NCBI GenBank assembly: GCA_963734945.1
Contig: CAVTJF010000063.1
Coordinates: 75,496 to 139,495, forward strand
DNA: 64,000 nt
Direction: 5' to 3'
Origin: an uncultured Gammaproteobacteria bacterium
GTDB lineage: Bacteria > Pseudomonadota > Gammaproteobacteria > Xanthomonadales > Rhodanobacteraceae
In this document: piece by piece, positions 2,348-59,375 of the stretch
Layout: every line of letters starts with the position of its first letter
Numbering within the stretch: the stretch's first letter is position 1
The notes under the pieces: model-generated
The model's database searches: none
The model's input: the letters and a program-made list of their open reading frames with translations, nothing else
Told to the model about the DNA's origin: nothing
Translations under genes and position numbers: made by a program

Positions 2348-2619
2348 CACCGGGCTCCTTCGCAAGAGATGTCAGTCTAGGTGGCGGCGTGGCTGCGATA
2401 CAAGCGCGCGTGGCGGGGTCCGCTGCGGGCAGGTTCGGGCCTTCATGGCGTTGGCGCATGGCCCGGATCGCAGCCGCCCGGGCCGGGCGATCGGGACGGG
2501 CGGCGCGATGCCGGCGTCACGGACCAATCAGCACGCTTTGCCGAAACCCCGGCTGCGGTTCAGTTTTCGGGTAAAAATCCCTGTATTATTCGCAGCTTGG
2601 CAGGTGCAAGGAATGACAG

Positions 2620-29554: not shown

Positions 29555-29577
29555 CCGGGGAATCCTACAGTTGATAC

Positions 29578-29868
29578 GGCGCGCCTGCCAGTGCGCTGGT
29601 TTGCCCTGTTTGACCCACTCAGAGCCATGCTCGCGGGCCACGGCAAGACGCGGTACGCGGGCAAGGGTGGTTCTCTTGGCAAGTACTGCAACGCAGCCGT
29701 GGCCCGCGAGCGTGGCTGCCGAAGGGCGAGCCGCCGGACGTCCGTCTGCCGCAGCCCATCTGCTTGCAAGGCAACCCGCCTTGCTGCGCAAATGCGCCTT
29801 GCATCCGAACGCCCAGCGACTTGCTGAGTGGATTGAACAGGGCAAACCAGTGCACTAGCATGCGCGCC
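29578..29868. mobile_element. ~290-bp element bounded by imperfect ~45-nt inverted repeats (MITE-like or regulatory palindrome)
   Basis: Left arm 29578-29622 and the reverse complement of right arm 29824-29868 match at about 39/45 positions by hand alignment. The core CTGGTTTGCCCTGTT is identical in both arms. The element fills almost the whole divergent intergenic region. No target duplication was seen. Confidence 0.45.
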
Positions 29869-40364: not shown

Positions 40365-40380
40365 GGCTGACGGGCTCCGA

Positions 40381-41856: not shown

Positions 41857-43910
41857 GGCTTGCGACCGGCCTTGTCGGCAGCAGTGGCGGGTGCCGGATC
41901 GGCGAGGAAGTCGTGCACGGCCGGCAGCAGCGGGCGCTCGTCACGCGGCGTCAGCAGCGCGCGGTTGTCGCGCAGCTTCAACTGCTCGGTGCGCATGTAA
42001 TTGTATTTTTCGCTGGACACGGCCTGCTCGGTGGCCGCATCGCGCAGGATCTTCGGGTGCAGGAACACCATCAGGTCCTGCTTCTCGTTCTTGTTGCTGC
42101 GGTAGCGGAACAGGTTGCCCAGGAGGGGAATGTCACCCAGCAGGGGTACCTTGCGATTGGTGTCGCTGGTGTTGTTGGATATCAGCCCGCCGAGCACCAG
42201 CATGGCGTCGTCGGCTACCAGCACCGAGGTCTTCACTTCACGCTTGTTGGTGATCAGGTCGACGGCGCCGCTGACCTGCGGCGCCAGCGAGGACAACACA
42301 TAGTGGATGTCCATGCGCACCGCGTCGCCTTCGTTGATGTGCGGGGTGACGGTGAGGGTCAAGCCCACGTCTTTTCGCTCGATGGTCTGGAACGGGTTCT
42401 GCGGCTGGCTGGTGCCGCCGGCATTGGTGCTGGTGTACTGTCCGGTCTTGAACGGCACCTCCTGCGCCACCTTGATTACCGCTTCCTGATTGTCGAGGGT
42501 CAGAATGCTGGGCGTGGACAGGACATTGCTGTTGCCGTCGCCTTGCAGTGCCCGTATCAGGGCGCCGACCTGCAGGATCGGCGTGTCCGAGCCGGGCAGG
42601 GTGACCGAGCCGTTGAGATAGCCGAGGTTGAGGCCACCGGCCAGCGCGCCGGCCAGGTTGTTGGGGTCGGCCAGGCTCAGGATATTGCCCTGGCCGTTGG
42701 GGCCGGTGAAGTTGGTGCCACCGATGACCGAATCCTTGAGGCTGCCGTCCGCATTGGTCTTCAGCGGCAATTGCCACTGCACGCCGATCTCCTTGGCCGT
42801 GCTCAGACCCACCTCGGCAATCACCGCCTCGATCAGGACCTGGGCGCGGCGGATGTCGAGCTGGCGGACGACCGCCTGCAGGGAACGGAATACGGCCGGG
42901 GATGCGGTGATCACCAGCGCATTGGTTTTCTCGTCGGCCTGGATGGTGGTTGACTCCTTGTCGGCGCCACCAGCGGCTGCCGGCGCCTTGGCGGTGCCGG
43001 CGGCGCGTGCGTCGCTGCCTTCGAGATCGCGCGCCACGCCCGACAGGATCGGCACCAGGTCCTTGGCATTGGCGTAGTTGAGGTACACCACCTGGGTGGC
43101 GCCGCCCGATTGCAGCGGCGTGTCCAGATTGGTGATCAGGGTGCGCATGGCCAGGCGCCGGCTCTTGCTGCCCGAGAGCAGGATGGAGTTGGTGCGCTCA
43201 TCGGCCATCACGTTGATGCCGTTGGGCCCCTTGTCCGCGCTGTTGCCATCCAGACGGGTGAGGGTGCGCGCCACTTCGGAGGCGTTGGCATGCTGCAGCG
43301 GAATCACCTCGACGTGGGCGTCGCTGGCGGTGTCGACCCGGGCAATGATGCGCTCCAGCCGATGCACCACCGAGGCGCGGTCGGACAGGATCAGCGAGTT
43401 GCTCGGCCCGTGCGCCACCACCTGGCCGCCCTGCGGCACGAACTGCTGCAGCAGCGTCGCCAGTTCAGGAGCCGACACGTAATGCACCGGCACCACCTGG
43501 GTCACCAATCCGTTGCCCTGGGGAAGTTTCGAGTCCACCGGCACGGCGCCATCGCCACGTGCGCTGGCCTGGCTGACGATTTTCACCATGCCGTCGCCGG
43601 CGGGCAGGGTGACGTAGCCGTGCACCGCCAGTACCTGCTGGAACACCTGGTAGATCTGCTCGGCATCCAGCGGTTTTTGCGACACCACCGTGACCTTGCC
43701 CTGCACATTGGGGCCGAGGATGAAGTTCTTGCCGGTGATCTCCGACACCGTGGCCACCAGGGCCTGGATGTCGGCATCCTTGAGGTTGAGCATCTGCGGC
43801 CCGCTGACCTTGGCGCCGGTCTTGTCCGCGGCTGGCGACTGGGCAGCAGCGGGCATCGCCAGCGGCAACAGCAGCAGTGCAAGAATCAGGTTCTGGATAG
43901 TGCGACGCAT
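41853..43910 (-). CDS. gspD: type II secretion system secretin GspD
   Basis: Signal peptide [25 protein letters not shown]0-N3 domains, and a secretin domain reading [15 protein letters not shown]. Confidence 0.95.
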
Positions 43911-43928
43911 GGTGTTATTCCCGATGGT

Positions 43929-44900
43929 TCATTGGCCCTTGCTCAGATCGATATCGATCGTCTGTGGCTGGCCGTTGCGCTGTATGGTCAGTTGTACGTG
44001 TTTGGCGTTGCGCAGTTGTTGAAACAGTTGCTGGCCGCGGGCAATGGAGTCCAGATGAATGCCGTTGACCGCAGTCACCACGTCGTCCGCACCCAGCCCG
44101 TATGCCGCAGCCAGCGGGTTGCTGGCGCCGCCACCCAGGCGTACGCCACGCAACTCGCCGTCGCTGAATACCGGTTGCAGCTGCATGTTGGCGACGGCCC
44201 TGGCCGGGTCGCGTTGAAACTCCGACTGTACCTGCTGCCAATTGACGCGGCCACCGCTTATGCGCGGTGCCACGTATATGGGCGTTGTCGCACCGGCGCC
44301 GGTCGAGCGTCCGGCTTGCGACCCGCCACTGTTGGTCAGGGTGCCGCCACTGTGACCCAGGGGCTGCACCGATGATGCACTGTCCAGTGACTCGCGCGGC
44401 AGGTCCAGGCGCTCGTTGCGGCCATTGTGCTCCAGCACCACATGGTCGGCGCGCACCGCCTTCAGGCTGACCCCCTGCTGGATGCGGTCGCCTACCCGGT
44501 AGCTGTGCTCCGTGCCATTGGCATCGGCGATCAGTGCGTAGCCTCCCTCACCCTGGCCTGCCGACACGGTGCCATGCAGGGTCAGTTTCAACTGGGTCGC
44601 CTGGCCCGCTTCCATGATGTCGCGCCTGAGCGCGTTGGCATTGCCATTGCCAAAAAGGTGCCAGCGACTGATGTCGCCCTGGGTGCTGTCGGCTTGTGCA
44701 ATCGGGGCGCTGGCCGGCATCGGGGAGAGTTCCGGGGTCAGCGGAGTGAACAGCGACCAGGCCAGTTGCACCAGCATCCAGATGCACAGCAGTCCGGCCA
44801 GCAGCACGGCCGACCATGCCAGCACGGTCGGCAGCCGTGACGGCAAGGATGTTCCTGCGTTCGGGTTTGCAGCGCGCATCAGCCCTGCCCTCGGCGTCAT
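43929..44900 (-). CDS. gspC: type II secretion system protein GspC (TM + HR + PDZ)
   Basis: N-terminal TM (VLAWSAVLLAGLLCIWMLV) and a C-terminal PDZ-like segment (GVRLGG...GLGADDVVTAVNG). Positioned immediately upstream of gspD. Confidence 0.75.
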   Translation of the reverse strand: MTPRAGLMRAANPNAGTSLPSRLPTVLAWSAVLLAGLLCIWMLVQLAWSLFTPLTPELSPMPASAPIAQADSTQGDISRWHLFGNGNANALRRDIMEAGQATQLKLTLHGTVSAGQGEGGYALIADANGTEHSYRVGDRIQQGVSLKAVRADHVVLEHNGRNERLDLPRESLDSASSVQPLGHSGGTLTNSGGSQAGRSTGAGATTPIYVAPRISGGRVNWQQVQSEFQRDPARAVANMQLQPVFSDGELRGVRLGGGASNPLAAAYGLGADDVVTAVNGIHLDSIARGQQLFQQLRNAKHVQLTIQRNGQPQTIDIDLSKGQ

Positions 44901-45049: not shown

Positions 45050-46378
45050 TCAGTTGGACGGCGCGTTGCTGGAATCGGCATTGCCACCGCGACGCCGCCT
45101 GCGCCGGCGCGGACGGCCGCTTTTCTCGCCTGCGGTCTTGCCGTTGCCGCTGGCGTGCTTGCCGGGGTCAGACGGCTTGTCCTCGCTTGTCCGCGGTGGC
45201 GCAGTGACCTCCAGCATGGCCGGGTCGATGGACTGCACCGGGATCTTCTGTTCGATGTAGGCCTCGATGTCGGGCAGGGACATGGCGTAACGGTCGCAGG
45301 CGAAACTGATGGCGTCACCGCTGGCGCCAAGGCGCGCAGTGCGGCCGATGCGATGCACGTAGTCCTCCGGGTCCTGCGGCAGGTCGTAGTTGAACACATG
45401 GGTGATGTCGTCCACATGCAGGCCACGCGCTGCCACGTCGGTAGCTACCAGGAGGCTGATTTTGCCGTCCTTGAATCGTTGCAACAAGGTCTGACGCTTC
45501 TTTTGCGGCACGTCGCCCGACAGGGTGGCCACGTGATGGCCCTGCCGGCTCAGGCGTCGCGCCACCTGCTCGGCCGCGGCGCGGGTATTGACGAACACGA
45601 TGCCACGCTGCACGTGCATTGATTCGATCATGTTCAGCAGCAGCGGCAGCTTCTCCTCGCGTGCCGGGAAGAACACCTGCTGGCTCACGTGGTCGGCGGT
45701 GATCTGCTCGGTTTCCACGGTCAGCTTCTCGGGGCTGTTCATGTGTTCGTAGGCGAGTTCCAGCACGCGCAGGCTCAGGGTTGCGGAAAACAGCAATGCC
45801 TGGCGCTCCTCGCGCGGCGGCAGGCGCCGGAACAGGTAGCGCACGTCCTTGATGAAGCCCAGGTCGAACATCCGGTCGGCTTCGTCGATGACCATCACCT
45901 CGACGCTGGACAGGCGGAACACATGCTGCTTGAAGTAGTCCAGCAGGCGTCCCGGCGTGGCAATGATGATGTCGCAACCGTCCTTCAGCAGCTGCCGTTG
46001 CTTATCGTAGTCGACGCCCCCATAGATAAGTGCAAGGCGCAAGCCGGTGTGGCCGCCGATCAGACGCGCGTCCTTCTCGATCTGGATGGCCAGCTCGCGG
46101 GTCGGGGCAATGATCAGCGCACGCGGGTCCTGGTCCCGCCGCTCGGGCAGGGCCGGACGCGTCAGCAGCCGGTTCATCAGTGCCACCAGGAAGGCACAGG
46201 TCTTGCCCGTGCCGGTCTGCGCCTGGCCAGCCACGTCCTTGCCCGCCAACGCCGGCGGCAGGGCCATGGCCTGGATCGGCGTGCAGCGCGTGAACTGGCA
46301 CTCGGCCAGGCCCTGCAGCAGTCGCGGGTGAAGGTCGAACTGTTCGAAAAAGGTATCAGTGAGTACTTGGGTCGCCAT
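45050..46378 (-). CDS. rhlB: ATP-dependent DEAD-box RNA helicase RhlB
   Basis: Q-motif, [12 protein letters not shown] ([13 protein letters not shown]), [11 protein letters not shown], and a basic C-terminal tail. Divergent from trxA, as in enterobacterial rhlB-trxA-rho synteny. Confidence 0.9.
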
Positions 46379-47363: not shown

Positions 47364-47520
47364 TTGAGATGGTGCATCGCTGGTCGTGCCTTGTTTGGTG
47401 GTATGCGGGCACTTGTATGGTGAGCTGCGCTTCCGTGCCGGACGCTCCAGGCTGAACCGAATTGCATGCGGCACTGGACGCACAGGCTGCAACAATGCTA
47501 CTTTCACCGGGTCGCAGGCG

Positions 47521-47567
47521 CTCGCCTGCCCGTCCCCTGAACCTTTTTCCCCCTCCGGCGCCCATTC
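47521..47567 (+). promoter_or_regulatory. C-rich/G-poor tract in the rho leader (candidate rut-like site)
   Basis: Hand count over 47 nt gives 25 C and 7 G, in a genome where G and C are otherwise roughly balanced. It lies immediately upstream of the proposed rho start. Confidence 0.3.
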
Positions 47568-47578
47568 GAGGTCCGTCC

Positions 47579-49312
47579 GTGTCTGATATTGAAGAAAAGA
47601 ACGCGCCCAGCGCAAACCATTCCAGCGATGGCGACAAGCCAGCATCCAGGTCGGATTCGCCGGACAAACCCAAACGTGCTCCCCGCCGCAAGAAAGCCGC
47701 TGCCGCCGACTCCGGCGAGCAGGGCAAGTCCGGTGGTGGCCAGGACAACCCGTCCGCCAGCAATGATGGCGGAAAGTCCTCGGGCCAGGGTTCCTCCGGC
47801 TCGGGGTCGTCCGGCAAGGACAGCTCATCCGGCAAGGACTCCGGCGACAAGGGTGGCAACGACGACGGCCAGGGCGGCAATCGTGGTGGCAAGCCGCACG
47901 GCGGCAAGAACAAGCGCCGCGACAACAGCAACAACAACAAGAAGCGCCGTCGCGGGCGCAACGATCGCGGTCCTGGCCCTCGTCACGGCATGCCCAATGA
48001 GGACATTGACGAGAACGACGAGGGCGTGGATGCCGGCGACAGTTCGCGCCTGATCAACCTCACCGAGCTCAAGGCCATGAACGCGGTCGAGCTGCTGGCC
48101 AAGGCCGAGGAGCTGGGTATCGAGGAACACGTCGCTCGCGCCCGCAAGCAGAACGTGATCTTCAACATCCTCAAGGCCCATGCCCAGTCCGGTGGCGCCA
48201 TCTGGGGCGAGGGCGTGCTGGAAATCCTGCAGGACGGCTTCGGCTTCCTGCGTTCGGCAGACGAGTCCTATCTGGCCGGCGCCGACGATATCTACGTCAG
48301 CCCCAGCCAGATCCGGCGTTTCAACCTGCGTACCGGTGACTACCTGACCGGGCGCGTGCGCCATCCCAAGGAAAACGAGCGCTACTTCGCCATGCTGCGG
48401 GTGGATGACATCAATGGCGAGCCGCCGGCAGCGTCCAAGAACAAGATCCTGTTCGAGAACCTGACCCCGCTGTTCCCGCGCGAAGCGTTCCACCTGGAGC
48501 GCGGCAACGGCTCCAGCGAGGACATCACCGGCCGCATCCTGGACATGATTGCCCCGGTCGGCAAGGGTCAGCGCGGTCTCATCGTGTCGCCGCCCAAGGC
48601 CGGCAAGACGATGATGCTGCAGAACGTGGCCCAGGCCATCGTGCACAATCATCCGGATGCGCACCTGATCATCCTGCTGATTGACGAGCGTCCCGAGGAA
48701 GTCACGGAAATGGCCCGCTCGGTGCGCGCCGAGGTGGTCAGCTCCACCTTCGACGAGCCCGCCGCACGCCATGTGCAGGTGGCCGAGATGGTGATCGAGC
48801 GCGCCAAGCGCCTGGTCGAGCACAAGCGCGACGTGATCATCCTGCTCGACTCGATCACCCGCCTGGCGCGAGCCTACAACACCGTGGTGCCGTCTTCGGG
48901 CAAGGTGCTTACCGGTGGTGTGGACGCCAATGCGCTGCAGCGTCCGAAGCGTTTCTTCGGCGCCGCGCGCAACGTCGAGGAAGGCGGTTCACTGACCATC
49001 CTCGCCACGGCCCTGGTCGACACCGGCTCGAAGATGGACGAGGTGATCTACGAGGAGTTCAAGGGTACCGGCAACATGGAAGTGCACCTGAACCGGCGCA
49101 TTGCCGAGAAGCGCGTGTATCCGGCCATCGACATCAACCGCTCCGGCACGCGTCGCGAAGATCTGCTGATTCCGCCGGACATGCTGCAGAAGATATGGAT
49201 CCTGCGCAAACTGCTGCATCCCATGGATGAACTGGCCGCCATCGAGTTCACACTGGACAAGATGAAGAACACCAAGACCAACGACGAGTTCTTTGCCGCG
49301 ATGCGGCGATAG
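47579..49312 (+). CDS. rho: transcription termination factor Rho with ~157-aa low-complexity N-terminal extension
   Basis: From [16 protein letters not shown] onward it matches canonical Rho ([15 protein letters not shown], Walker [16 protein letters not shown]). Start proposed at GTG 47579, with GAGG 8 nt upstream. Alternative starts are ATG 47495 and TTG 47462. Confidence 0.9.
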
Positions 49313-50149: not shown

Positions 50150-50443
50150 ATGATGTCCTCACGTCACGATCACACCACATTTGCAGGCTGCGTCGGCACC
50201 CGCATGCGCATCCAGGCCGGCGAGCAGCAGTTCGAGGCCGAGCTGGAGCGCGTCGAACTGCTGAACAGGCAGCCGCAGCAGGACTACCAACCGTTCGCGC
50301 TGCTGTTCCAGGCGGACTCGGGCGAGGACCACGGTCAGCGCACCTATCGCGTCGAGCACCCGCAGCTGGGTCCGATTGACATGTTTCTGGTGCCGATCGG
50401 GCCGGGCACCCGCGGCATGCGCTACGAGGCCGTTTTCGCCTGA
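50150..50443 (+). CDS. hypothetical small protein (97 aa), signal-less relative of the Tat-signal protein at 50985-51353
   Basis: Start at ATG 50150 (MMSSRHDH) with a weak SD. Pattern F..G.R, L.L..V, F.LLF, FLVP and YEAVFA is shared loosely with the neighbouring minus-strand protein. Confidence 0.45.
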   Translation: MMSSRHDHTTFAGCVGTRMRIQAGEQQFEAELERVELLNRQPQQDYQPFALLFQADSGEDHGQRTYRVEHPQLGPIDMFLVPIGPGTRGMRYEAVFA

Positions 50444-50988
50444 GACGGTTGCTGCCGGCCGACGGTCGGCGGCTGCCATGCCATGAAGCAGTGCACGCCG
50501 CGGTCCTCGACCAGCTCGAAGCCGAGGCGTTGATACCAACGCAGTGCCGGGTTGAAGTGCTCGACATGCAGGCGTACGGCCAGGCCGGCCTGTTCGGCCA
50601 GCCCGAGAAGCGCCACCAACATGGCCGTGCCGAGTCCGGCGCCTCGCTGATCGGCACTCAGGGCGATGTCGATCAGACGAATCTCGTCTTCGCGCCGCTG
50701 CAGGTAGAGTCGCCCGATCGGCACACCGGCGCGTTCGATGATGGCGAACTCGGCATCAGCGAAATGCTCGCGGTAATGGGCGTGCTGGGCGTCGAACTGC
50801 ATCGCCAGAAATTGCTGCCGCTGTGCATCGCTCCAGTGACTTGCCGCTTCCAGCTCGCGTTCGCGGGTGCTGGCATACAGCGCGGCAAGGAAGGACAGGT
50901 CGGCCTGGGTTTCGGCCCGCACGGCCAGGTCAACGGGCAGGTCGGCCGCGTCGACCAGTGCGGTGCCGAGTGGCAGCGCAGCGCTCAC
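50422..50988 (-). CDS. GNAT-family N-acetyltransferase
   Basis: RLIDIALSADQRGAGLGTAMLVALL (Q/RxxGxG/A acetyl-CoA loop) and NPALRWYQRLGF. The GTG start at 50988 overlaps the upstream stop (GTGA). Confidence 0.8.
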   Translation of the reverse strand: MSAALPLGTALVDAADLPVDLAVRAETQADLSFLAALYASTRERELEAASHWSDAQRQQFLAMQFDAQHAHYREHFADAEFAIIERAGVPIGRLYLQRREDEIRLIDIALSADQRGAGLGTAMLVALLGLAEQAGLAVRLHVEHFNPALRWYQRLGFELVEDRGVHCFMAWQPPTVGRQQPSQAKTAS

Positions 50989-51353
50989 GCGGTGGCGGTA
51001 TTGACCACGGCAACCCACTCGCGCGCGGCGTCATGCGCGGGCTCGAGAAAAAGCTGCCGCGTGTTCCCGGCGCTGTCGCACAGCTCGTGGATACCGGCCT
51101 GCAGATCCGCATCGGCGCGGAATCGCAGCAGGCGCTGGCGATCGGACTGATAGCGGCTGAGCGGCACATCCTCGACCAGCGTCAAGCCTGCCGGTGCGCT
51201 GCCAGCCGTCGTGAACCGCGCGCCCGCGACAAACCCGTGTGGGCCACCCGTGCCCGTCAGGGCCCTGGCTGCGCGCGCAGTCGATGCCCCGGCCAGAGTC
51301 AGCACACCGCCCGCGGCAGCGGCCATGACAGTCAGAAACTTGCGACGCTGCAT
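50985..51353 (-). CDS. Tat-signal periplasmic/secreted small protein (122 aa)
   Basis: MQRRKFLTVMAAAAGGVLTLAGASTARAA is a twin-arginine signal with an AxA site. GAGGAG lies 8 nt upstream. It is the fifth gene of the operon. Confidence 0.6.
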   Translation of the reverse strand: MQRRKFLTVMAAAAGGVLTLAGASTARAARALTGTGGPHGFVAGARFTTAGSAPAGLTLVEDVPLSRYQSDRQRLLRFRADADLQAGIHELCDSAGNTRQLFLEPAHDAAREWVAVVNTATA

Positions 51354-51365
51354 GTTCGTTTCTCC

Positions 51366-51887
51366 TCAGCTGCGCGACGGATAGAGCCCGACCAGGGCGA
51401 TGATGAAATTCATGCTCAGGTAGGGCTGGCGATTGTTGTGGGCCTGCGACCCGCCCTGGTTGTCGAGCATCGGACCCATCGGTGTCAGCGGTGTGCCGCT
51501 GCCCTGGGGCGCAACATACAACTGCGTGCCCCTGGCCAGGAAGTTGTTGCCCACCTGGCGCTGATTGGCGGTTTCATTGACGCCCTGCATGGCGTGCGAG
51601 TGCTGTGGCATCTGTGCTTCGCTGAGCGTGACCGAATCAACGCCGCCGCGCTCGCCCAGCCTGCGGTCCGTCAGTCCCGGTCCGCGTCCCGGGTGCATCG
51701 GCGCACGTCCCTGCAGGTCCGGTAGCGCGGTGGTCGTGGGGCCGTCACCACCATAGGTGGTACCGAGCAGGCTGAACAGGGCCGTATTCTGGGAAACCGG
51801 CAGCAGCTGGCCGTTGCAGAAGGCCCAGCCGCGCGGCGCGAAATTGCCGGCGAAGATGCGTACTTCAGCGATGAAGGGTTCCGACAT
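51366..51887 (-). CDS. phage-tail-collar-domain protein (MdpB/COG4675-like), paralog 3
   Basis: MSEPFIAEVRIFAGNFAPRGWAFCNGQLLPVSQNTALFSLLGTTYGGDG...NFIIALVGLYPSRS. AGAGGA SD upstream. Confidence 0.85.
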   Translation of the reverse strand: MSEPFIAEVRIFAGNFAPRGWAFCNGQLLPVSQNTALFSLLGTTYGGDGPTTTALPDLQGRAPMHPGRGPGLTDRRLGERGGVDSVTLSEAQMPQHSHAMQGVNETANQRQVGNNFLARGTQLYVAPQGSGTPLTPMGPMLDNQGGSQAHNNRQPYLSMNFIIALVGLYPSRS

Positions 51888-51898
51888 GGCTGGATCCT

Positions 51899-52418
51899 CT
51901 AGGTTCGCGACGGGTAGATGCCGAACAGCGCAATGATGAAGTTCATGCACAGGAACGGCATCACGTTGGTGTGCGATCGGCTGCCGCCGATGGGGGCAAT
52001 GGTCTCGCTGGCCATCTGCAGCACCGGCGGCGGCCGCGGATTGAGGTAGTCGGCCGAACCGGTGCCCGGCACATTGCCGCCCGGGTCGACGCTGGTGGCC
52101 GTGCCCGCGCTGCCGTGCGCCGGATGCGAGTGCGAGGGCAAGCTGGTTGACGGTCAAGGTCACTGATTCCGATCCGCCCTTCGCGCCAAGGCGGCGGTCG
52201 GACAGCCCCGGACCCTGGCCGGCATGCACCGGAAGCCGCCCACGCATGTCCGGTAGCCCGAAGGTGGTGCGACCATCACCACCGTAGATCGTGCCGAGCA
52301 GGCTGAACAGGGCGTCGTTCTGCGACACCGCCAGCAGCTGGCCGTCACAGAAGGCCCAGCCGCGCGGGGCGAAGTTGCCGGCAAACATGCGGATTTCTCC
52401 AACAAACGGTTCGGACAT
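51899..52418 (-). pseudogene. phage-tail-collar-domain protein, paralog 2, disrupted by a 1-nt frameshift near 52140
   Basis: 93 N-terminal codons (…VTLTVNQL) are in one frame. The conserved C-terminal part (PSHSHPAHGS…NFIIALFGIYPSRT) is in the next frame. The span is 520 nt, which is 3n+1. Removing one T of CAGCTTGCC restores VNQLPSHSH. Confidence 0.75.
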
Positions 52419-52430
52419 CTCGGGGACTCC

Positions 52431-52934
52431 TCAGTTGCGCGACGGGAACAGCCCCTGCAGGGCAATGCAGAAATTGACGGCCAGGAACGGTTGCATGTTC
52501 TCGTGCGCCTGGCCGCCGCCGACGCTGGCGACCGTACCGTCGCCGAATGCGGCCGGATTGCCGGCCGGGGCATACAGCTGCTGGGTGGAGCGGCCGAACA
52601 GGTTGTTCTGAGGGGTATCGCTGCCGCCCTGATCGGTATTGGATCCGGCTGCCGCATGCGTGTGCGCGGGCATCTCGTCGGTCGTCAGGGTGTGCGCTTC
52701 CTCGCCGCCCTTGCTGCCGAGTGCGTCGTTCTGGCCCACGTGCAGCGGCGTGCGGCTGCGCAGATCGGGCAGCGCGAACGAGGTTTGGCCGTCGCCGCCG
52801 TAGGTGGTGCCGAGCAGCGAGTACAGCGACTGGTTCTGGTTGATCGGCAGGATCTGACCGTCACAGAATGCCCAGCCGCGTGGCGCGAAATTGAAGCCGA
52901 CCATGCGGATTTCAGCGAGGAAGGGTTCGGACAT
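52431..52934 (-). CDS. phage-tail-collar-domain protein, paralog 1
   Basis: MSEPFLAEIRMVGFNFAPRGWAFCDGQILPINQNQSLYSLLGTTYGGDG...NFCIALQGLFPSRN. An SD (GGAG / AAGGA) lies upstream. Confidence 0.85.
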   Translation of the reverse strand: MSEPFLAEIRMVGFNFAPRGWAFCDGQILPINQNQSLYSLLGTTYGGDGQTSFALPDLRSRTPLHVGQNDALGSKGGEEAHTLTTDEMPAHTHAAAGSNTDQGGSDTPQNNLFGRSTQQLYAPAGNPAAFGDGTVASVGGGQAHENMQPFLAVNFCIALQGLFPSRN

Positions 52935-52997: not shown

Positions 52998-55900
52998 TCA
53001 GAACTTCGGCAGCGGCACATCGCCGGCGAAGTTGGTGACGCCGGAGGTCGTGACCGAACCGGTGGGATTGTTGTCCGCATTGACCGTGGACAGGCTCTCG
53101 ACCTGTACCGTCGGCAGCGGCGTGCAGCTGAATGAATCGTCCAGCACATAGTAGCCGTTGGTCGAGCTGTTGGCATTGTTGGGTGCGCCGTCTCCAGTGC
53201 CTCCGCCCAGATCGACATGCAGCGTCATGCCGCAGTCGCGGGCCCTGGCCAGCACTGCCCGTGCCAGGCTGCCGGGGGCTGCGGTACCCGTAACGGTATT
53301 GCCTTCGATGGTGGCATTGGCCACGGCGCTGCCGCTGGGATAATTCTCGACGTTGACGGTGATCACGCCGCAATCGGCGCCGCCGCAGGCACCGATGTTC
53401 TCCGTGGCCGCACGCACGTTGTTGTTGAGAACCTGCGAGTCGAGGCTGGAGCTGCCCTGCACGTCGACAAAGATGCCCGAGGCCTGGGACTGGCTGCCGA
53501 CCGCAACGGTCTGGCCGATGCTGTTGTTGTCAACGCGCAGGTCCATGTCGCTCTCGCCACCGCGGGTGGAGCTGTAGACGGCTTCCTTGCCGGTACCGTC
53601 GACGGAGTTGTTGAACACCTCGGCATCAACCAGGCCACTGCTCGAGTCGGTCAGTGCCAGGGTGTCCAGACCGCGTTGCTGCGGGATGTTGCTGATCGTG
53701 TTGCCGGACACGGACGCGTCGAGCACCGAGGTCGAGCCCTTCTGCAGGATGATCTGCCCGGACAGGGATATGCCGCGGCCGATGTCATTGAGGTTGTTGC
53801 TGCTGAAGCTCGGCCGCAGGGTGGCGCCCCCGGTCACGGTGCCGCTGACGTTGTTCTGGCCATTGATCGGGTGCGAGGCGGTGAAGGTGCTGCCGGTCAC
53901 GTCGCTGGTGATGGTGCCGCCCGAACCCGGGCCGTTGCCGATGGCCAGCGTCATGGCCTGGCCGCGTGCGCCGAGGAAGGTCGAATTGTTGACGTTCCAG
54001 GCGCCGTTGACGATGCCGGTGGTGCTCAGCACCACCATCGCATTGCCGTTGACCGCAGGCGTTGCCGGGGTCAGGTCCTTCAGGTCGACCGTGGAGCCGT
54101 CGATGGTCATCGAGGTGAAGCTGACGCCGGCATTGGTGACGCGGATGCCGGCGAAGTTGGAGGTCTGGTCCAGCTCCTCGATCAGGCTGCCGGTGTCGAT
54201 GCGGTTGCTGCCGGTGAGGTCGAAGGCCTCGAAGCCGCTGCCGATCGGGTGCCGGATGTGTACGGCCGAGAGCGTGATGTCGCCGCTGGCCGAGGCCTGG
54301 ATGGCATGGTCGTTGGCCAGGTTGGTGATATCGGCCGGATTGGCGCTGTTGCCGTTGAACAGCAGCTCCATCTGCCGCAGCACCACGCCGTGCGCGTTGC
54401 TCAGGGCAATGCCGTCGCTGGTGGTGTGCTGGATGGTGCCGCCGCTGCCGTTGCGTGCATTGCCGCCGTCACCGGTCACGCTGAACAGGCCGCTGCTGCC
54501 GGTATCGGCCAGCACGATGCCGCTGGCCGGGCCGGTGCTGGTGGTGCCCGCGCTGACGCTGCGCAGGGTCACGCCGGCGGCGCCGATGGTGACACCGTCG
54601 ATGTCCACGGCCACGCCCGTGCTCGACTGCACGCTATTGCCGCTGCCCTCGATGGTCAGGGTGCCGCCACCGGTCGCGGCGATGCCATTGCCGCTGCTGG
54701 TGCTGACGGCCAGGCCACCGCCGATGAAGTGCATGGCGTGACCGCTGTTGCCGGACAGGGTCAGGGCCGCGTTGGCGCCGGTTTTGAGCGAGGAACCGTT
54801 GGCGGAAAACACGCTCATGCCGCCGCTGTTGCCATTGACCAGAATGCCGGTGCCGGTATTGGTGATGACACCGGCCAGGGACACCATGCCGCCGTTGCGC
54901 CCGGTGATCGACACGGCGCGGCCGGCGTTGCTGATGCTGCCCGGATAGGTCACGTCCGAGGCACCGCCATTGATGCGCACGCCGATGCCGGCGGCAGCGG
55001 TGATGCTGCCACCCGCGGCCGTCACCGACCCGCTCACGCTATCGATATTGACGCCGTTGCCGGCGCTGCCTGCCGAGCTGATGCCGGCGAAGGAGAAGCC
55101 GTTCAGCGTGGTGTTGCGCACGTCCAGCGCGGGCGCACCGGTGCTGGACAGGCTGGGCACGCCCGGGTTGGCGATGCTCACGCTGCCGCCGGCCACATAG
55201 ATCGCCGGCGCAGCGCTGGTGCTGATGTCCGACAGCGTGCCGAGGGCAAAGCTCGAAGTGCCGGCGTTGGCGTCCAGGTCAATGCCGTACGCCGCCGGCG
55301 AGGTGATCGTGGTGCTGGTGGCGTCGAAGGCGCTGTTGCTGGTGTTGCGCACGCGCAGGGCGTCACCCGGTGCCGAATCGCTGGAGATGTCGCCCAGCGT
55401 GGCCAGCAGGGTGCCGCTGCCGCCGCCGTCCAGCAGCAGGGTGCCGCCGGTACCGGAAATCGCCACCTGGTCGATGTCGAGGGTGCCGCCGAAGGTACCC
55501 GCTATCGCGCTGCCGCCCGGGGTGTTGCCGATCGCCAGGCCGCGGATGGTGTTGCCGCCGGATGCGGCAACGTTGATGGCGTTGCCGCTGCCGGCGGCAA
55601 GGCTCGGCGCGGTACCGCCGAGTGAGGGCCTTGCGGCCGCGGTCACCACCGGTCCGCCCGGTGGCGAGATGCCGGCGAAGCTGTCGAAATCGGTGAAACT
55701 GTCGCCGGCGTGCGGCGCCGTGGCCTGGCCGAACAGGACCTGGCCGCTCTTCAGCGTGATACTGCCACTGTAGCTGCCGCTGGCGACGAAGATGGCGTCG
55801 TTCGCGGCGGGGCTGTCGATGCCGCTGCCGGTCTGCTTGGCATTGAATTCGGCCAGCGAGGCGAACGGCGTGCTCAGCCGACCGTCACCGCCGGCGCTGG

Positions 55901-58900
55901 CGGCGGCATCGATGAACCAGACCGTGTTGCCGCCGACACTGATGTTGGCGGTCACCGCGGCGCTGCACTTGGGATTCGCCGGCGTCTCACCGACGCCGTT
56001 GTCGCACACCACATAACTGAAGGAGTCGGTGCCGCTGAAACCCGCTGGCGGGTTGTAGCTGAAGGCGCCGGTGCCGCCATTGATGTTCAGGCTGCCGCCA
56101 TTGACCGTCGTGGTCGGTACCGGATTCGATCCATTGCCGACCGTGAGGACGCTGCCGGCTGCCACTTCCAGCGGGTCGTCGGTGGCGCCGACCAGCAGTC
56201 CGCCGGAGGCACTGACGTTGACACTGATGTTGCTGACCACGCCGGTGATGCTGGGTGGCGTCGGCACTGTCGGCGGATTGTTGACGCCGCTGACGGTGAT
56301 GGTCAGTGTCTGCGGCGGCGACGAGGTGTCGATGCCGCCGTTGGCCGTTCCGCCGTTGTCCATCGCCACCACCGAGAAGCTGGCGGTGCCGAAGGCGTTG
56401 GCTACCGAGGTGAAGCTGAGGTTGCCGCTGCCATCGATTGCCGGTGCGGCGCTGAACGTCAGCGTCGGGTCGGCACTGACCGGGGTGACGATGAAGCTGA
56501 CTGCCTGCCCGGACTCATTCGATGGGCCGGGGCTGACCGCGGTCGCCCAGGCGCCGCTGTAGGGGCCGCTGCCCTCCGCCACGGTGACCGTGCCGCCAGG
56601 GCTGAACGACGGCGGGTCATTGACGTCGGTGATGTTGACCGTGATGGTGCCCGACCCGCTCTGTGCCGGGGTGCCGTTGTCTGTGGCCTGTACGGTCAGC
56701 GCGGCACTCGGGCTGCCACCCTGGAGGATGGCGTCGAGCGCGCTGGTGTTGGCCACGGTGATCTGGCCGCTGGACGCGCTGATGGCGAACGCACCCCCGC
56801 TGTTGCCGCCGGTGATCGAGTAGCTCAGCGTCTGACCGGCATCCGGATCGGTGGCGCTGGCGGTGCCGACCACGGTGCCGGCCGGGCTGTGTTCGAGCAC
56901 GCTGAACGTGGCCGGGGTGACCGCCGGTGGCTCGTTGACATCGGTCAGATTGATCGTCACCGTCGCCGAACCGCTCAGCGGCGGCGTGCCGTCGTCGCTG
57001 ACCTGAACGGTCAGTGCGAAGGTCGGATTGGTCTCGAAATCCAGAACCGTGCTGTTGGCGACGGTGATCTGTCCGCTGGAGGCATTGATTGCGAACGCGC
57101 CGCCGGTATTGCCTGCGGTGATCGAGAAGCTGTGGTTCTGTGCCGAATCCTGGTCGGTATAGGCGATTGGCGTGCCGACCGTCGTGGTGTTGGGCGAGTT
57201 CTCGGCGATGGAGAACGTGGCCGGGGTGACCACCGGCGGATCGTTGGCGTTGGTGAGGTTGATGGTGATCGTGGCCGATCCGTTCAGCGACGGCGTGCCG
57301 TTGTCGGCCACCTGCACGGTCAGCGCAAAGCTGGGATTGGTCTCGAAGTCCAGCACCGCGCTGTTGGCCACCGTGATCTGGCCGCTGGTGGCGTTGATCG
57401 CGAAAGCGCCATTGGTGTTGCCTGCGGTGATCGCATAGGTGTGGGTCTGCCCGGTATCGGGGTCGGTGTAGGCAACCGGGGTGCCGACCGGCGTCGCGTT
57501 GGCCGAGTTCTCGGCAATCGAGAACGTGGCCGGGGTGACCACCGGCGGGTCGTTGACGTCGCTCAGATTGATGGTGATCGTGGCGCTGCCCGACTGCACC
57601 GGACTGCCGTCGTCGGTGACCTGCACGGTCAGCGCGAAGCTCGGATGGGTCGCGAAATCCAGCGCCGCACTGTTGGCCACCGTGATCTGGCCGCTGCCGG
57701 CATCGATCGCGAAGGCGCCGGAGGTGTTGCCGGCGGTGATCGAGAAACTGTGGTTCTGGCCACTGTCGGGATCGGTATAGGTGACCGGTGTACCGACGCT
57801 GGTGGCGTTGGCGCTGTGCTCGGGAATCGAGAATGTCGCCGGATTCACGGTCGGCGGGTCGTTGACGTCGGTGACGGTGATCGACACGGTGGCCGTGTCG
57901 CTCGCGCCGAGACTGTCGGTAACCTGGAAGTCGAAGCTGTCGGCGCCGGCATAGAACGCGTTCGGCGTGTAGGTCACATTGGGCGGCGTACCGGTCAGCG
58001 TGCCGTTGTTCGGGCCGCTGCCGGCAACCAGGCTGAAGGTGATCGGATTCAGGTCAGGGTCCGAGCCGGTCAGGGTGATCGCCACCGGGGTGTCCTGCAG
58101 CGTGGTCACCGACTGCGGATCGGCTACCGGCGGCTGGTTGAAGGCCACCGTCGAATCGATGCGGAAGCAGATGTTGCCGCCGCTGATCTGCGCGAAAAAG
58201 GCGCCGAGGTCTGCACCGACCGGGCCGTCGCCCTGCGGATCCTGACCCAGCGGCGCAATGCCTGCCCAGTCGCCGGTCTGGCCGTCCAGTACGCAGGCGG
58301 CCCAGGCCGTGCCCACCGATCCGGCGAGCAGACCCAGGGCCAGGGCGACCGTCAGCAGCGAGCGGTGGCGCCGCAGCATGGCCAGCGCCGCCAGCGCGAA
58401 CAGCAGGCTGAGCAGCGCCAGGGCGATCCGCGACAGCGTGGGCACAGCGATGTTGCTGCCCAGTTGCACCAGGAACGGCGAGGTCACGCCCATGGCATCG
58501 TCGCCGGTGCTGTCGCTGGCCAGCACCGCGGTGCGCACGAAGAAGGCATGCCCGGCGATCGAGGACAGGGGCATCTGGGTCTCGATCACGTCCAGGCCCG
58601 ACTGCCCGTTGCCGATACCGACCGGCCAGCCGCCGGCGGAGATGCTCACCGGCGCACCGAAACTTGATGTGCCGGGGTCAACGCAGTCCAGGCGTTCAAC
58701 CGAAGTGACGCTGGCGCTGGTGCCGGCGCTGTCCACCGTGGTCAGCAGAATCTGCTCGACGCCGCCGAAGCTGCCGTCGGGCGTGGCCACGCTGCAGCCG
58801 GTGCCCGGGTCATTGTCCACATCCAGCAGCACGCGGAATTGCGTCGTCGCTGCGTGTGCCGTCAGAGCCGCGCAAAGCAGTACCAGCGCCAGGCACAGAC

Positions 58901-58937
58901 GCAGACTGCTGCCGAAACCACCTGATCGAGAAATCAT
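52998..58937 (-). CDS. giant surface/secreted protein (1,979 aa): signal peptide, small N-module, internal IPTL-CTERM-like segment + second signal peptide, cadherin-like repeats, long right-handed beta-helix-like region
   Basis: Start re-set to ATG 58937 (MISRSGGFGSSLRLCLALVLLCAALTAHA), with AGGGGA 6 nt upstream. Four ~103-aa VNDPP-delimited repeats are present. The C-terminal ~1,000 aa is Gly/Ser/Thr/Asn/Ala-rich with periodic repeats typical of parallel beta-helices. No RTX nonapeptides were seen. Confidence 0.85.
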   Translation of the reverse strand: MISRSGGFGSSLRLCLALVLLCAALTAHAATTQFRVLLDVDNDPGTGCSVATPDGSFGGVEQILLTTVDSAGTSASVTSVERLDCVDPGTSSFGAPVSISAGGWPVGIGNGQSGLDVIETQMPLSSIAGHAFFVRTAVLASDSTGDDAMGVTSPFLVQLGSNIAVPTLSRIALALLSLLFALAALAMLRRHRSLLTVALALGLLAGSVGTAWAACVLDGQTGDWAGIAPLGQDPQGDGPVGADLGAFFAQISGGNICFRIDSTVAFNQPPVADPQSVTTLQDTPVAITLTGSDPDLNPITFSLVAGSGPNNGTLTGTPPNVTYTPNAFYAGADSFDFQVTDSLGASDTATVSITVTDVNDPPTVNPATFSIPEHSANATSVGTPVTYTDPDSGQNHSFSITAGNTSGAFAIDAGSGQITVANSAALDFATHPSFALTVQVTDDGSPVQSGSATITINLSDVNDPPVVTPATFSIAENSANATPVGTPVAYTDPDTGQTHTYAITAGNTNGAFAINATSGQITVANSAVLDFETNPSFALTVQVADNGTPSLNGSATITINLTNANDPPVVTPATFSIAENSPNTTTVGTPIAYTDQDSAQNHSFSITAGNTGGAFAINASSGQITVANSTVLDFETNPTFALTVQVSDDGTPPLSGSATVTINLTDVNEPPAVTPATFSVLEHSPAGTVVGTASATDPDAGQTLSYSITGGNSGGAFAISASSGQITVANTSALDAILQGGSPSAALTVQATDNGTPAQSGSGTITVNITDVNDPPSFSPGGTVTVAEGSGPYSGAWATAVSPGPSNESGQAVSFIVTPVSADPTLTFSAAPAIDGSGNLSFTSVANAFGTASFSVVAMDNGGTANGGIDTSSPPQTLTITVSGVNNPPTVPTPPSITGVVSNISVNVSASGGLLVGATDDPLEVAAGSVLTVGNGSNPVPTTTVNGGSLNINGGTGAFSYNPPAGFSGTDSFSYVVCDNGVGETPANPKCSAAVTANISVGGNTVWFIDAAASAGGDGRLSTPFASLAEFNAKQTGSGIDSPAANDAIFVASGSYSGSITLKSGQVLFGQATAPHAGDSFTDFDSFAGISPPGGPVVTAAARPSLGGTAPSLAAGSGNAINVAASGGNTIRGLAIGNTPGGSAIAGTFGGTLDIDQVAISGTGGTLLLDGGGSGTLLATLGDISSDSAPGDALRVRNTSNSAFDATSTTITSPAAYGIDLDANAGTSSFALGTLSDISTSAAPAIYVAGGSVSIANPGVPSLSSTGAPALDVRNTTLNGFSFAGISSAGSAGNGVNIDSVSGSVTAAGGSITAAAGIGVRINGGASDVTYPGSISNAGRAVSITGRNGGMVSLAGVITNTGTGILVNGNSGGMSVFSANGSSLKTGANAALTLSGNSGHAMHFIGGGLAVSTSSGNGIAATGGGTLTIEGSGNSVQSSTGVAVDIDGVTIGAAGVTLRSVSAGTTSTGPASGIVLADTGSSGLFSVTGDGGNARNGSGGTIQHTTSDGIALSNAHGVVLRQMELLFNGNSANPADITNLANDHAIQASASGDITLSAVHIRHPIGSGFEAFDLTGSNRIDTGSLIEELDQTSNFAGIRVTNAGVSFTSMTIDGSTVDLKDLTPATPAVNGNAMVVLSTTGIVNGAWNVNNSTFLGARGQAMTLAIGNGPGSGGTITSDVTGSTFTASHPINGQNNVSGTVTGGATLRPSFSSNNLNDIGRGISLSGQIILQKGSTSVLDASVSGNTISNIPQQRGLDTLALTDSSSGLVDAEVFNNSVDGTGKEAVYSSTRGGESDMDLRVDNNSIGQTVAVGSQSQASGIFVDVQGSSSLDSQVLNNNVRAATENIGACGGADCGVITVNVENYPSGSAVANATIEGNTVTGTAAPGSLARAVLARARDCGMTLHVDLGGGTGDGAPNNANSSTNGYYVLDDSFSCTPLPTVQVESLSTVNADNNPTGSVTTSGVTNFAGDVPLPKF
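56616..57866 (-). repeat. four tandem ~309-bp coding repeats (cadherin-like domains) inside the giant gene
   Basis: Protein repeats read VNDPP(T/V)V(N/T)PATFSI(P/A)E(H/N)S...TITINL(S/T)D. The antisense track ORFs 57172-57438 and 57481-57780 are near-duplicates offset by 309 nt. Confidence 0.85.
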
Positions 58938-59375
58938 CCGTTGTCCCCTGTCGAAACCGGCCTCGCGATGCAGCGCGATGCAACATCCCCATGACACGTC
59001 CGCCCCGGTCCGTTGCAAAAAGGCAGGCCGACGATGACGCCCGAGGCGAACGACTTTACACCCAGACGGGCTCGCATCGCCAATTGTTGCTCGGGCCCGT
59101 TGTTGATGCATTGGGGGGGAGGATGTTGAGCTGGCGGCGTGCCGGCACGCTCGCTCTTCTGCTTGCGTCATGTGCACCGTGTACTTCAGCGTTGTCAGCA
59201 CGGCGGGGCAACGCGCTTGTCCGCATGCCGGTCGAACCGGTCACGGCGGTGGAACCCGACGCGCTGTCCCGAGGAACCCGTGTCGCGAAACGCCGACTCG
59301 GCTGCGGGTGCAGGGCCGGGGCGCGACAGGCGCTACACTTTGCGCAACGAGCACGGCGAGCCAGGGAAACCAACG

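Follow-up and report, generated by a model that had tools for sequence, protein, structure and literature searches.

A predicted mid-protein IPTL-type sorting signal coupled to an internal signal-peptide-like segment forms a putative N-terminal 'mid-cut' cassette in giant adhesin-like proteins

We observed that a giant adhesin-like gene in the window, by which we mean the whole 64-kb stretch of DNA analysed, encodes an IPTL-CTERM-type sorting signal close to its N-terminus, followed at once by a second, signal-peptide-like hydrophobic segment. The interval 58299-58451 corresponds to residues I163-A213, numbered from ATG 58937. Residues 165-213 comprise VPTLS, a transmembrane (TM) helix, RRHR and a second hydrophobic segment that ends in AWA before a further A, and the translation across the segment (...LGSNIAVPTLSRIALALLSLLFALAALAMLRRHRSLLTVALALGLLAGSVGTAWAACVLDGQ...) is uninterrupted by a stop. 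Comparison with homologues places this segment at the centre of an N-terminal 'mid-cut' cassette that is conserved throughout a large family of giant adhesin-like proteins; a single precursor probably gives rise to both a small piece that serves as anchor and a very large adhesin that is exported. Among the interpretations offered by an earlier sequence-only reading, that of a polyprotein cut by a sorting enzyme appears to agree most closely with the data, the other cut being assigned to signal peptidase I. The features of the gene and its downstream neighbours are as follows.

52998..58937, minus strand: giant adhesin-like gene with the cassette (1979 aa plus stop)
58851..58937, minus strand: signal peptide 1 (aa 1-29), MISRSGGFGSSLRLCLALVLLCAALTAHA before A; hydropathy peak, AHA at -3/-1
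58446..58850, minus strand: N-domain (aa 30-164), ~135 aa, beta-rich; AF2 strands 30-158, pLDDT 95-98
58431..58445, minus strand: IPTL-type signature motif VPTLS (aa 165-169); the TIGR04174 match begins at aa 165
58374..58427, minus strand: TM1, the sorting-signal helix (aa 171-188); from hydropathy, AF2 helix 170-190 and family conservation
58377..58379, minus strand: internal ATG (M187); not conserved, no SD-like sequence upstream
58362..58373, minus strand: basic cluster RRHR (aa 189-192), from sequence
58299..58361, minus strand: TM2, the internal signal-peptide-like segment (aa 193-213), ending G-T-A-W-A; AF2 helix 194-213
58137..58298, minus strand: C-module (aa 214-267), ACVLDGQTGDW...DPQGDG...ICFRIDSTVAFN; AF2 pLDDT ~95
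53001..58136, minus strand: passenger (aa 268-1979), tandem-95/cadherin-like repeats, then a Gly/Ser/Thr/Asn-rich region
52431-52934 and 51366-52418, minus strand: downstream phage-tail-collar-domain proteins (PF07484)
50422-51018, minus strand: downstream GNAT-like acetyltransferase

The listed open reading frame spans 52998..59201 (minus strand) and has its 5' end at GTG 59201. In a colinear locus from a 96%-identical metagenome-assembled genome (MAG; L004, 95.8% nucleotide identity over 5940 nt), a stop codon sits one codon 5' of the Met at 58937. Because of this stop, the extension to GTG 59201 was dropped, and translation almost certainly begins at ATG 58937 (MISRSGG...), with a predicted signal peptide ending LTAHA before A downstream of it. 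The position of this signal peptide is kept across homologues. Hydropathy analysis of the whole 1979-aa protein gave only three hydrophobic segments, namely the signal peptide, ~162-191 and ~193-217; the latter two ranges are hydropathy window extents, and the helices read off the sequence are TM1 at ~171-188 and TM2 at ~197-213.

The sequence-only reading had described a tripartite IPTL-CTERM-type signal and, after it, a signal-peptide-like segment that uses the Arg cluster as its n-region, and this description is correct. TIGR04174 (IPTL_CTERM), the profile check it called for, matched the whole protein with 22.9 bits (E 7.7e-5, cutoff 20.5) and the isolated 35-aa segment with 32 bits; homologues scored 22-37 bits, and Pfam PF18203 (IPTL-CTERM) reached 19.7 bits, slightly below its cutoff of 20.8. 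All three parts of the IPTL-CTERM design are present (VPTLS, an 18-residue helix and RRHR), in a location other than the extreme C-terminus, with 1,787 residues after the basic cluster. The tag is likewise internal rather than C-terminal in about 150 homologues. Automated annotation names such proteins (P0001, for example) 'IPTL-CTERM sorting domain-containing' and is silent on the tag being internal. TM2 follows the Sec type I pattern as read from the sequence, with RRHR, an h-region of ~12 residues and G-T-A-W-A before A, and it differs from such a signal peptide in lying internally, at aa 193-213. The predicted signal peptidase I site falls between A213 and A214 (between nt 58299 and 58298). 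RRHR would have a double role: it ends the sorting signal as its cytoplasmic tail and opens the second signal peptide as its n-region. TM1 is predicted to be a stop-transfer segment. The helical hairpin with both flanks in the periplasm, one of the earlier proposals, is very likely the topology of the precursor.

Next, we determined how widely this arrangement is shared. A profile search returned 951 representative clusters at E<=1e-3; 281 of them reach E<=1e-30. Among the best 150 of the 951, almost every match covers profile positions ~10-270 and lies at the N-terminus of its protein (up to ~2,900 aa long), and almost every one has this cassette in its N-terminal part, as do essentially all non-fragment matches inspected. 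Its order is a signal peptide, a beta domain of ~135 aa, [IV]PTL, a TM helix, an Arg cluster, a signal-peptide-like TM helix with AxA and an LDGxxxDW module. Members with the cassette come from Gammaproteobacteria and from Acidobacteriota/Thermoanaerobaculia MAGs. Column frequencies were taken from 152 aligned sequences, drawn from clusters with mutual identities of 50% or less. The motif columns hold I/V in 96%, P (P166) in 99%, T in 68%, L (L168) in 82% and S/G in 78%, followed by W/G, and the basic cluster holds R in 76%, R in 72% and R/H in 70%. TM2 shows G209 (-5) in 69%, A in 62% or V in 20% at -3, A in 91% at -1 and A in 68% at +1. In the C-module, D218 (94%), G219 (100%) and W224 (100%) stand out, with R259 and D261 at 90% or higher.

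The reading frame was described as lacking a stop after the sorting segment, and it is indeed open, both here and in the 96%-identical MAG. A recent gene fusion by stop loss had been put forward as an explanation, and a pseudogene or an assembly error that deleted a stop after RRHRS would have the same appearance. HVO_0405 and MXAN_5598, two proteins with internal sorting tags, are described as two-gene fusions. Yet the independent MAG, at 4% nucleotide divergence, has the same open frame, and its hairpin (aa 165-213) differs from that in the window by 8 synonymous and 0 nonsynonymous changes, which suggests purifying selection on the hairpin. The arrangement is moreover common to more than 150 distinct representatives, none with a stop codon between the two hydrophobic segments. 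These comparisons effectively refute a recent fusion, a pseudogene or an assembly error; an ancient fusion is possible. A profile search with the N-domain only, aimed at a stand-alone N-domain with a terminal IPTL-CTERM, gave 6 matches, of which those inspected were fragments, and the fragments that reach the junction kept the cassette layout. A regular-expression search of the window and the retrieved related loci found no terminal IPTL-CTERM protein.

Internal initiation at ATG 58379 had also been suggested. This codon is M187, and a product starting there would be a separate secreted protein of 1793 aa, as had been calculated. MLRRHRS...AWA, followed by A, does resemble a complete signal peptide. 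Its Met column, in contrast, is most often L (24%), V (14%), R (13%) or A (9%), with Met outside these four, and no GGAGG-like, Shine-Dalgarno-type site occurs in the 20 nt that precede the ATG (TCGCGCTGGCGGCGCTGGCC). The signal-peptide-like features are conserved whether or not a start codon is present. Since the internal Met is not conserved, we consider this route very improbable.

We favor, with moderate confidence, a two-cut pathway that leaves an anchored N-domain and a giant passenger held together; its topology, the two cuts, the chemistry of anchoring and the continued association between the products are what we infer from comparative sequence analysis. Signal peptide 1 would direct the ~135-aa N-domain through Sec across the inner membrane, until TM1, the IPTL-type helix, halts transfer and leaves the Arg cluster in the cytoplasm. 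TM2 would then re-insert as an internal signal peptide, so that the C-module is exported together with the ~1,700-aa passenger. Signal peptidase I would cut after A-W-A213, and an IPTL sorting enzyme would cut at VPTLS and anchor or modify the C-terminus that the N-domain thereby gains, as in other tripartite sorting systems. The TM1-RRHR-TM2 hairpin would be discarded, the N-domain and C-module would stay together as one folded unit, and the giant passenger would be tethered by its N-terminal end via a C-terminal-type anchor.

An uncut hairpin could instead serve as a permanent anchor, with N-domain and passenger both periplasmic and the IPTL-like motif and AxA as relics of ancestry. Under this explanation the topology rules are satisfied equally well, by two short helices and a positively charged loop on the inside, processing is predicted from sequence, and no sorting enzyme was found nearby: the window ORFs scanned (64 kb) include no member of the exosortase, rhomboid or CPBP families, and their polytopic candidates are UbiA, an Mpo1-like protein and two more without a Pfam family. 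To our knowledge, and according to the TIGR04174 description, there is no known IPTL sorting enzyme. Relic motifs, however, would decay, yet the IPTL motif and AxA columns are conserved (P166, I/V, L168, A at -1 and G at -5) among clusters of at most 50% identity. Such conservation of the IPTL motif is more than a plain TM anchor would require. Furthermore, a diderm that held an adhesin of ~1,700 aa with cadherin-like repeats on its inner membrane could not present it at the surface, and in HVO_0405, the tested case, the central sorting signal is cleaved. We therefore regard a permanent anchor as unlikely.

Alternatively, only one cut might be made. Signal peptidase I could free the passenger and leave the N-domain bound to the hairpin, or the IPTL enzyme could act by itself and leave the passenger anchored by the hairpin. 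Signal peptidase I is universal and the IPTL enzyme is postulated, and the use of both conserved sites is a prediction. Against this, both sites, IPTL motif and AxA, are conserved, which argues that both are used, and we give single cleavage little credence. 

Within the N-domain alignments, D41, G47, C48, G59 and E119 are invariant and C85 is near-invariant, and the domain matches no Pfam or NCBIfam model. The C-module belongs to the cassette and not to the repeat passenger. Stand-alone cassette genes terminate directly past it (P0051, of 266 aa, in L009 and P0180 in L011), and the repeat protein of L009 is encoded apart from the cassette, by a gene that has a signal peptide of its own. AF2 modelled all 282 residues with a pTM of 0.81 and a pLDDT of ~95 in N-domain and C-module alike; in a control the C-module alone still reached pLDDT 87, so that AF2 confidence is no proof of its dependence on the N-domain. 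By mfDCA (~148 effective sequences), 4 of 7,290 N-domain-to-C-module pairs scored above 1.4 (top 2.28), compared to 0 of 6,200 N-domain-to-hairpin pairs and 8 of 8,515 pairs within the N-domain. Taken together, AF2 confidence, co-variation and the stand-alone cassette genes suggest that the two pieces may remain associated after cutting. The sequence WAAC at the predicted signal peptidase I site was also considered as a lipoprotein signal and rejected, as Cys215 occurs in just 15% of members and co-varies with Cys257; this co-variation suggests a Cys215-Cys257 disulfide.

These data raise a more specific possibility, which we put forward tentatively: the cassette may be a single beta domain in two pieces, with an excisable hairpin (IPTL signal plus internal signal peptide) between them. 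It is conceivable that, after two cuts, the C-terminally anchored small piece holds the adhesin non-covalently by its N-terminal module. Whether the cassette amounts to a widespread and previously undescribed split-domain device for N-terminal anchoring is, in our estimate, somewhat doubtful. A contiguous, unsplit version of the domain was not found in Pfam, permuted-consensus or PDB sequence searches. Pfam scans of a circularly permuted C-module plus N-domain, and of each alone, gave no family (Phage-Gp8 at E 0.06-0.1 is meaningless), and a search for an unsplit ancestor with the permuted consensus returned 8 matches, all in the split arrangement. Foldseek against the PDB gave no match (best E 0.5 for the 282-aa model and 3.4 for the C-module alone), and the PDB sequence search gave an insignificant CBM74 match, 'ISVDGDLSDW' (E 6.4), and none for the N-domain.

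C-terminal sorting tags such as LPXTG, PEP-CTERM, PGF-CTERM, GlyGly-CTERM, MYXO-CTERM and IPTL-CTERM are defined by their terminal position. The window protein shares with IPTL-CTERM proteins (TIGR04174/PF18203) the [IV]PTL[SG] motif, hydrophobic helix, basic cluster and preceding Sec signal peptide; the S-layer protein mela_00855 of Methylomirabilis lanthanidiphila, for instance, has an IPTL-CTERM with a Sec signal peptide in front. Unlike these proteins, it has the signal at residues 165-192 of 1,979 and adds a second signal-peptide-like helix and 1,766 further residues.

The claim that such an arrangement had not been described was too strong, as there are three precedents. Haloferax volcanii HVO_0405, a substrate of ArtA (archaeosortase A), has a C-terminal-type sorting signal mid-protein, a central PGF tripartite signal that is processed in vivo and was shown by experiment to be cut there by the sorting enzyme. 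It differs in its archaeal PGF signal, its known enzyme and its export as a Tat substrate; it is described as a strain-specific two-gene fusion, in comparison to the conserved family architecture here, and the descriptions consulted mention no second signal-peptide-like helix. Myxococcus xanthus MXAN_5598 has an internal MYXO-CTERM for which processing was proposed, and resembles the window protein in its large adhesin-like region, internal sorting tag and exported domains after the tag. Its tag is a Cys-containing MYXO-CTERM paired with a CPBP-type myxosortase, in contrast to the IPTL type here; its adhesin lies upstream of the tag, not downstream, and it is a single protein and probable gene fusion, not a family. 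The third precedent, NF033207 'midcut-by-XrtH', states in its name the concept of an exosortase-type sorting signal that is cut mid-protein rather than at the C-terminus. Its profile positions ~25-89 of 175 align to the hairpin in the window protein and in 5/5 homologues tested, with 25.4 bits for the former and 19.4-40.1 for homologues, all below the 45-bit cutoff, and the flanking domains do not match. Going by its name, NF033207 is tied to the exosortase XrtH and a PEP-CTERM-like motif; a literature search on 'midcut' and XrtH found nothing relevant. The Bradyrhizobium FbcH cytochrome b/c1 precursor is a polyprotein split at an internal signal peptide by signal peptidase, so that a single gene yields two separate mature products by way of an internal segment resembling a signal peptide, as is proposed here; it belongs to a respiratory membrane complex and has no sorting-enzyme signal and no adhesin.

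Mid-protein sorting signals are thus already known, and what appears new is a conserved IPTL cassette coupled to a re-export signal. A near-N-terminal tag and re-export signal kept family-wide would make mid-protein use a selected design and not only a fusion accident, and could offer bacteria a route to hold very large adhesins in place by the N-terminus. The cassette would also supply bacterial examples of polyprotein-style signal peptidase processing. Because precursor and products would differ greatly in size, these proteins could be used as convenient two-band reporters for finding the IPTL sorting enzyme, as HVO_0405 was for ArtA.

The passenger exceeded the HMM cutoff for tandem-95 repeat/bacterial cadherin-like adhesins (NF012211, 111.6 bits, cutoff 90), and PF00028 Cadherin scored 207.9 bits. 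It has no other hydrophobic segment by hydropathy and no C-terminal sorting signal. The downstream neighbours (50422..52934) are absent in L013 and syntenic in L001, L005, L007 and L012. A T2SS cluster lies 8 kb from the gene, an observation of proximity only; the passenger is ~180 kDa.

We observed that the giant ORF carries its sorting-signal segment in mid-protein. ATG 58937 is its first plausible start, with the N-terminus MISRSGGFGSSLRLCLALVLLCAALTAHA|A by translation. At L004, a 96% identical locus of an uncultured gammaproteobacterium known from an independent metagenome-assembled genome, the frame is closed by a stop one codon before the equivalent Met, and the listed portion upstream of ATG 58937 is probably not translated. 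The giant protein, numbered from this ATG, has 1979 residues, and a hydropathy scan of its whole length found three hydrophobic segments only: the signal peptide, TM1 and TM2.

Layout of the giant gene
52998..59201, minus strand: giant ORF as listed, with the mid-protein sorting-signal segment
residues 165-169, minus strand: VPTLS (translation)
residues ~171-188, minus strand: hydrophobic helix, TM1
M187 = ATG 58379, minus strand: internal Met (translation)
residues 189-192, minus strand: basic cluster RRHR
minus strand: second hydrophobic segment, TM2, ending G-T-A-W-A213; next A214-C-V-L-D-G

The text quoted in the sequence-only reading is present exactly in this translation, without a stop codon; its interval 58299-58451 spans residues 163-213, and it was correct in giving a length of 1,793 aa from ATG 58379. 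That reading took the first part of the segment for an IPTL-CTERM-type sorting domain, which was borne out by the curated NCBIfam model TIGR04174 (IPTL-CTERM): the whole giant protein scored 22.9 bits against a cutoff of 20.5, and the isolated 35-residue segment 32 bits. The Pfam IPTL-CTERM model reached 19.7 bits on the giant protein, slightly below its cutoff of 20.8. An unexpected alignment to residues 161-213 came from NCBIfam NF033207, 'midcut-by-XrtH protein' (25.4 bits, under the cutoff of 45), a model whose existence shows that curators have already modelled a family with an exosortase-type signal in mid-protein. The giant protein falls outside IPTL-CTERM by position and outside NF033207 by score, and we therefore file it as working like both and as a member of neither.

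Next, we assessed how widely the layout is kept. In a first homology search, proteins from Thermoanaerobaculia and other metagenomes aligned over the whole N-terminal 330 residues with all elements retained. A profile from six homologues, run against 1.84 billion representative proteins, matched 951 clusters at E<=1e-3 and 281 at E<=1e-30. Among the best 150 of the 951, nearly all matched profile positions ~10-270 at the protein N-terminus, in proteins of up to ~2,900 residues, and the cassette (signal peptide, N-domain, IPTL signal with TM1, Arg cluster, TM2 and C-module) was present in essentially all non-fragment matches inspected. The IPTLSEWG pattern named in the sequence-only reading agrees with the family motif columns.

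Column conservation over 152 sequences
Motif: I/V 96%, P 99%, T 68%, L 82%, S/G 78%, then W 47%, G 51%
Basic cluster: R 76%, R 72%, R/H 70%
End of second helix: G(-5) 69%, A/V(-3) 82%, W(-2) 64%, A(-1) 91%, A(+1) 68%
Following module: L-D(94%)-G(100%)-x-x-x-D(83%)-W(100%)

The giant genes of the window and L004 are colinear over 5,940 nt at 95.8% identity, with eight synonymous and no nonsynonymous differences in codons 165-213. This comparison rules out misassembly, pseudogene status and a recent fusion through loss of a stop. Fusion of two genes by loss of a stop had been one of four proposals; as a recent event it does not fit, since L004 has the same layout, and the comparison of orthologs for a separating stop codon found none between the two hydrophobic segments in the family members inspected. 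The proposed second product, initiated at ATG 58379, fits no better: column 187 holds L 24, V 14, R 13 and A 9% over the 152 sequences without a conserved Met, no ribosome-binding-site-like sequence precedes this ATG, and the synonymous-only changes within a colinear gene also argue against internal initiation. Judged from sequence, the mid-protein layout is a conserved architecture and not an accident.

The extent of the cassette is given by two complete genes that encode it alone, P0051 (266 aa, locus L009) and P0180 (261 aa, locus L011), both ending directly after the ...CFR[FV]D... strand. The cassette thus includes ~54 residues past the second helix. These genes define the unit as signal peptide, N-domain, IPTL signal, internal signal peptide and C-module, with the giant passenger (tandem-95/cadherin-like repeats, then a Gly/Ser/Thr/Asn-rich region) as an optional addition. 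At L009 a separate repeat-protein gene lies 256 bp downstream of the cassette gene, an arrangement that may represent the system in an 'unfused' state. No Pfam or NCBIfam model and no solved structure matched the N-domain or the C-module.

Stand-alone cassette genes and separate repeat gene
L009 2200-3000: stand-alone cassette gene
L011 1072-1857: stand-alone cassette gene
L009 3257-4192: repeat-protein gene with its own signal peptide and tandem-95-like repeats

To see whether the N-domain and the C-module belong together, we modelled residues 1-282 with AlphaFold2 from a 46-sequence alignment (mean pLDDT 88.4, pTM 0.81). The model has a beta-rich N-domain (pLDDT 95-98), a hairpin of two helices (170-190 and 194-213) and a two-stranded C-module (pLDDT ~95). 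The N-domain makes up less than half of the modelled chain, and in our reading a pTM of 0.81 is unlikely unless most elements are confidently placed with respect to one another. The C-module modelled alone still reached a high pLDDT of 87, so that this control does not discriminate. Mean-field DCA on ~148 effective sequences recovered the C-module pair Cys215-Cys257 as positive control (score 1.93). The N-domain/C-module pair 110-221 scored 2.28, second overall and about 9 SD, with further pairs at 155-231, 92-248 and 138-247. Above 1.4 we counted 4/7,290 pairs from N-domain to C-module, 0/6,200 from N-domain to hairpin and 8/8,515 within the N-domain; the couplings between N-domain and C-module match intradomain ones in strength. 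These models lend moderate support to an association of the two. A circular permutation of a CBM-like fold was also considered; the sole hint of it is that the LDGxxxDW start matched CBM74, without significance.

By the Sec topology rules (positive-inside rule, stop-transfer and re-initiation segments), the N-domain would be exported across the membrane, TM1 would span it out-to-in and leave the Arg loop cytoplasmic, and TM2 would span in-to-out, with all downstream residues exported. The hairpin topology suggested earlier agrees with these rules, a positive Arg loop lying between the two helices. The suggestion of a polyprotein cut by a sorting enzyme also fits as far as the conserved IPTL motif and AxA site go, the cleavages themselves being predicted. 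A short h-region, Gly at -5 and the conserved AxA are together characteristic of signal peptidase I sites; the IPTL motif, likewise conserved and lying where TM1 meets the periplasm, is characteristic of substrates of a putative IPTL sorting enzyme. If it acts as sortase, archaeosortase, rhombosortase and myxosortase do, this enzyme would cleave at the motif, and the upstream domain would stay anchored. Processing is predicted to yield three pieces: the N-domain (~14 kDa) in anchored form, the hairpin, which is discarded, and, from A214 onward, a passenger of some 1,766 residues (an estimated ~180 kDa) that the C-module would hold to the N-domain. A C-terminal hydrophobic sorting signal was absent in 69/69 long family members checked, so the cassette would be their sole membrane-anchoring element. 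In Methylomirabilis the surface-layer protein is of the IPTL-CTERM type, and the type II secretion system brings GlyGly-CTERM and MYXO-CTERM substrates to the surface.

Mid-protein sorting tags as such are not new. ArtA cleaves Haloferax HVO_0405 at a central PGF signal. The authors describing MXAN_5598, with its internal MYXO-CTERM, refer to Navarre and Schneewind 1994 and Abdul Halim et al. 2017 for their statement that such tags function in mid-protein. HVO_0405 and MXAN_5598 are single proteins described as gene fusions. 'Midcut-by-XrtH' is documented as an HMM only, and our literature search found no paper on it. In contrast to these three cases, the window family uses the IPTL type of signal, couples it to a conserved internal signal peptide, places it near the N-terminus of giant adhesins, is conserved in hundreds of diverged clusters from at least two phyla, and has flanks in a likely split-domain relationship. 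The NCBI pipeline names the homologue P0001 'IPTL-CTERM sorting domain-containing protein' though its domain is internal; automated names thus conceal the mid-protein architecture.

At five loci the giant gene is followed by two to three small phage-tail-collar-domain (PF07484) proteins without signal peptides, usually with a GNAT acetyltransferase after them; at the related locus L013 both neighbours are absent.

Neighbouring genes (window unless a locus is named)
50422-52934, minus strand; L001 18008-21094; L005 16501-18049; L007 15655-18570; L012 18062-21158: collar/GNAT neighbourhood
39153-44900, minus strand: type II secretion GspF, GspE, GspD, GspC, ~8 kb downstream of the giant gene
45050-46378, minus strand: DEAD-box helicase, between Gsp cluster and giant gene
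47462-49312, plus strand: Rho, between Gsp cluster and giant gene

For the Gsp cluster this is proximity only. The 350-aa ORF at 51366-52418 (minus strand) holds two Collar domains joined by an out-of-frame-looking stretch, …GARQRGHGHQRRPGRQCAGH…, where relatives have three separate ~170-aa genes; a frameshift, real or assembly-derived, has probably joined two collar genes here. One collar segment of this ORF is 91% identical over 93 aa to L007 16184-16702 (an Acidobacteriota MAG), against only ~40% identity for the adjoining giant proteins, a hint that the collar genes were transferred horizontally or have recombined. The polytopic proteins at 28187-29845 and 1007-2365 (both minus strand; about seven and at least four hydrophobic segments, respectively) matched no Pfam family. 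Long ORFs antisense to the giant gene reach 985 aa (e.g. 55710-58667, plus strand); their matches in other loci are all antisense to homologous giant genes, and they seem to arise simply from the high GC content. Many long family members (e.g. P0033, P0038, P0062, P0073) share the tail ...G(T/A)(I/V)xF...G..CP(T/Q)P at the extreme C-terminus, which may be a conserved C-terminal module; the window protein ends in ...VTNFAGDVPLPKF (52998-53130, minus strand), without the tail Cys.
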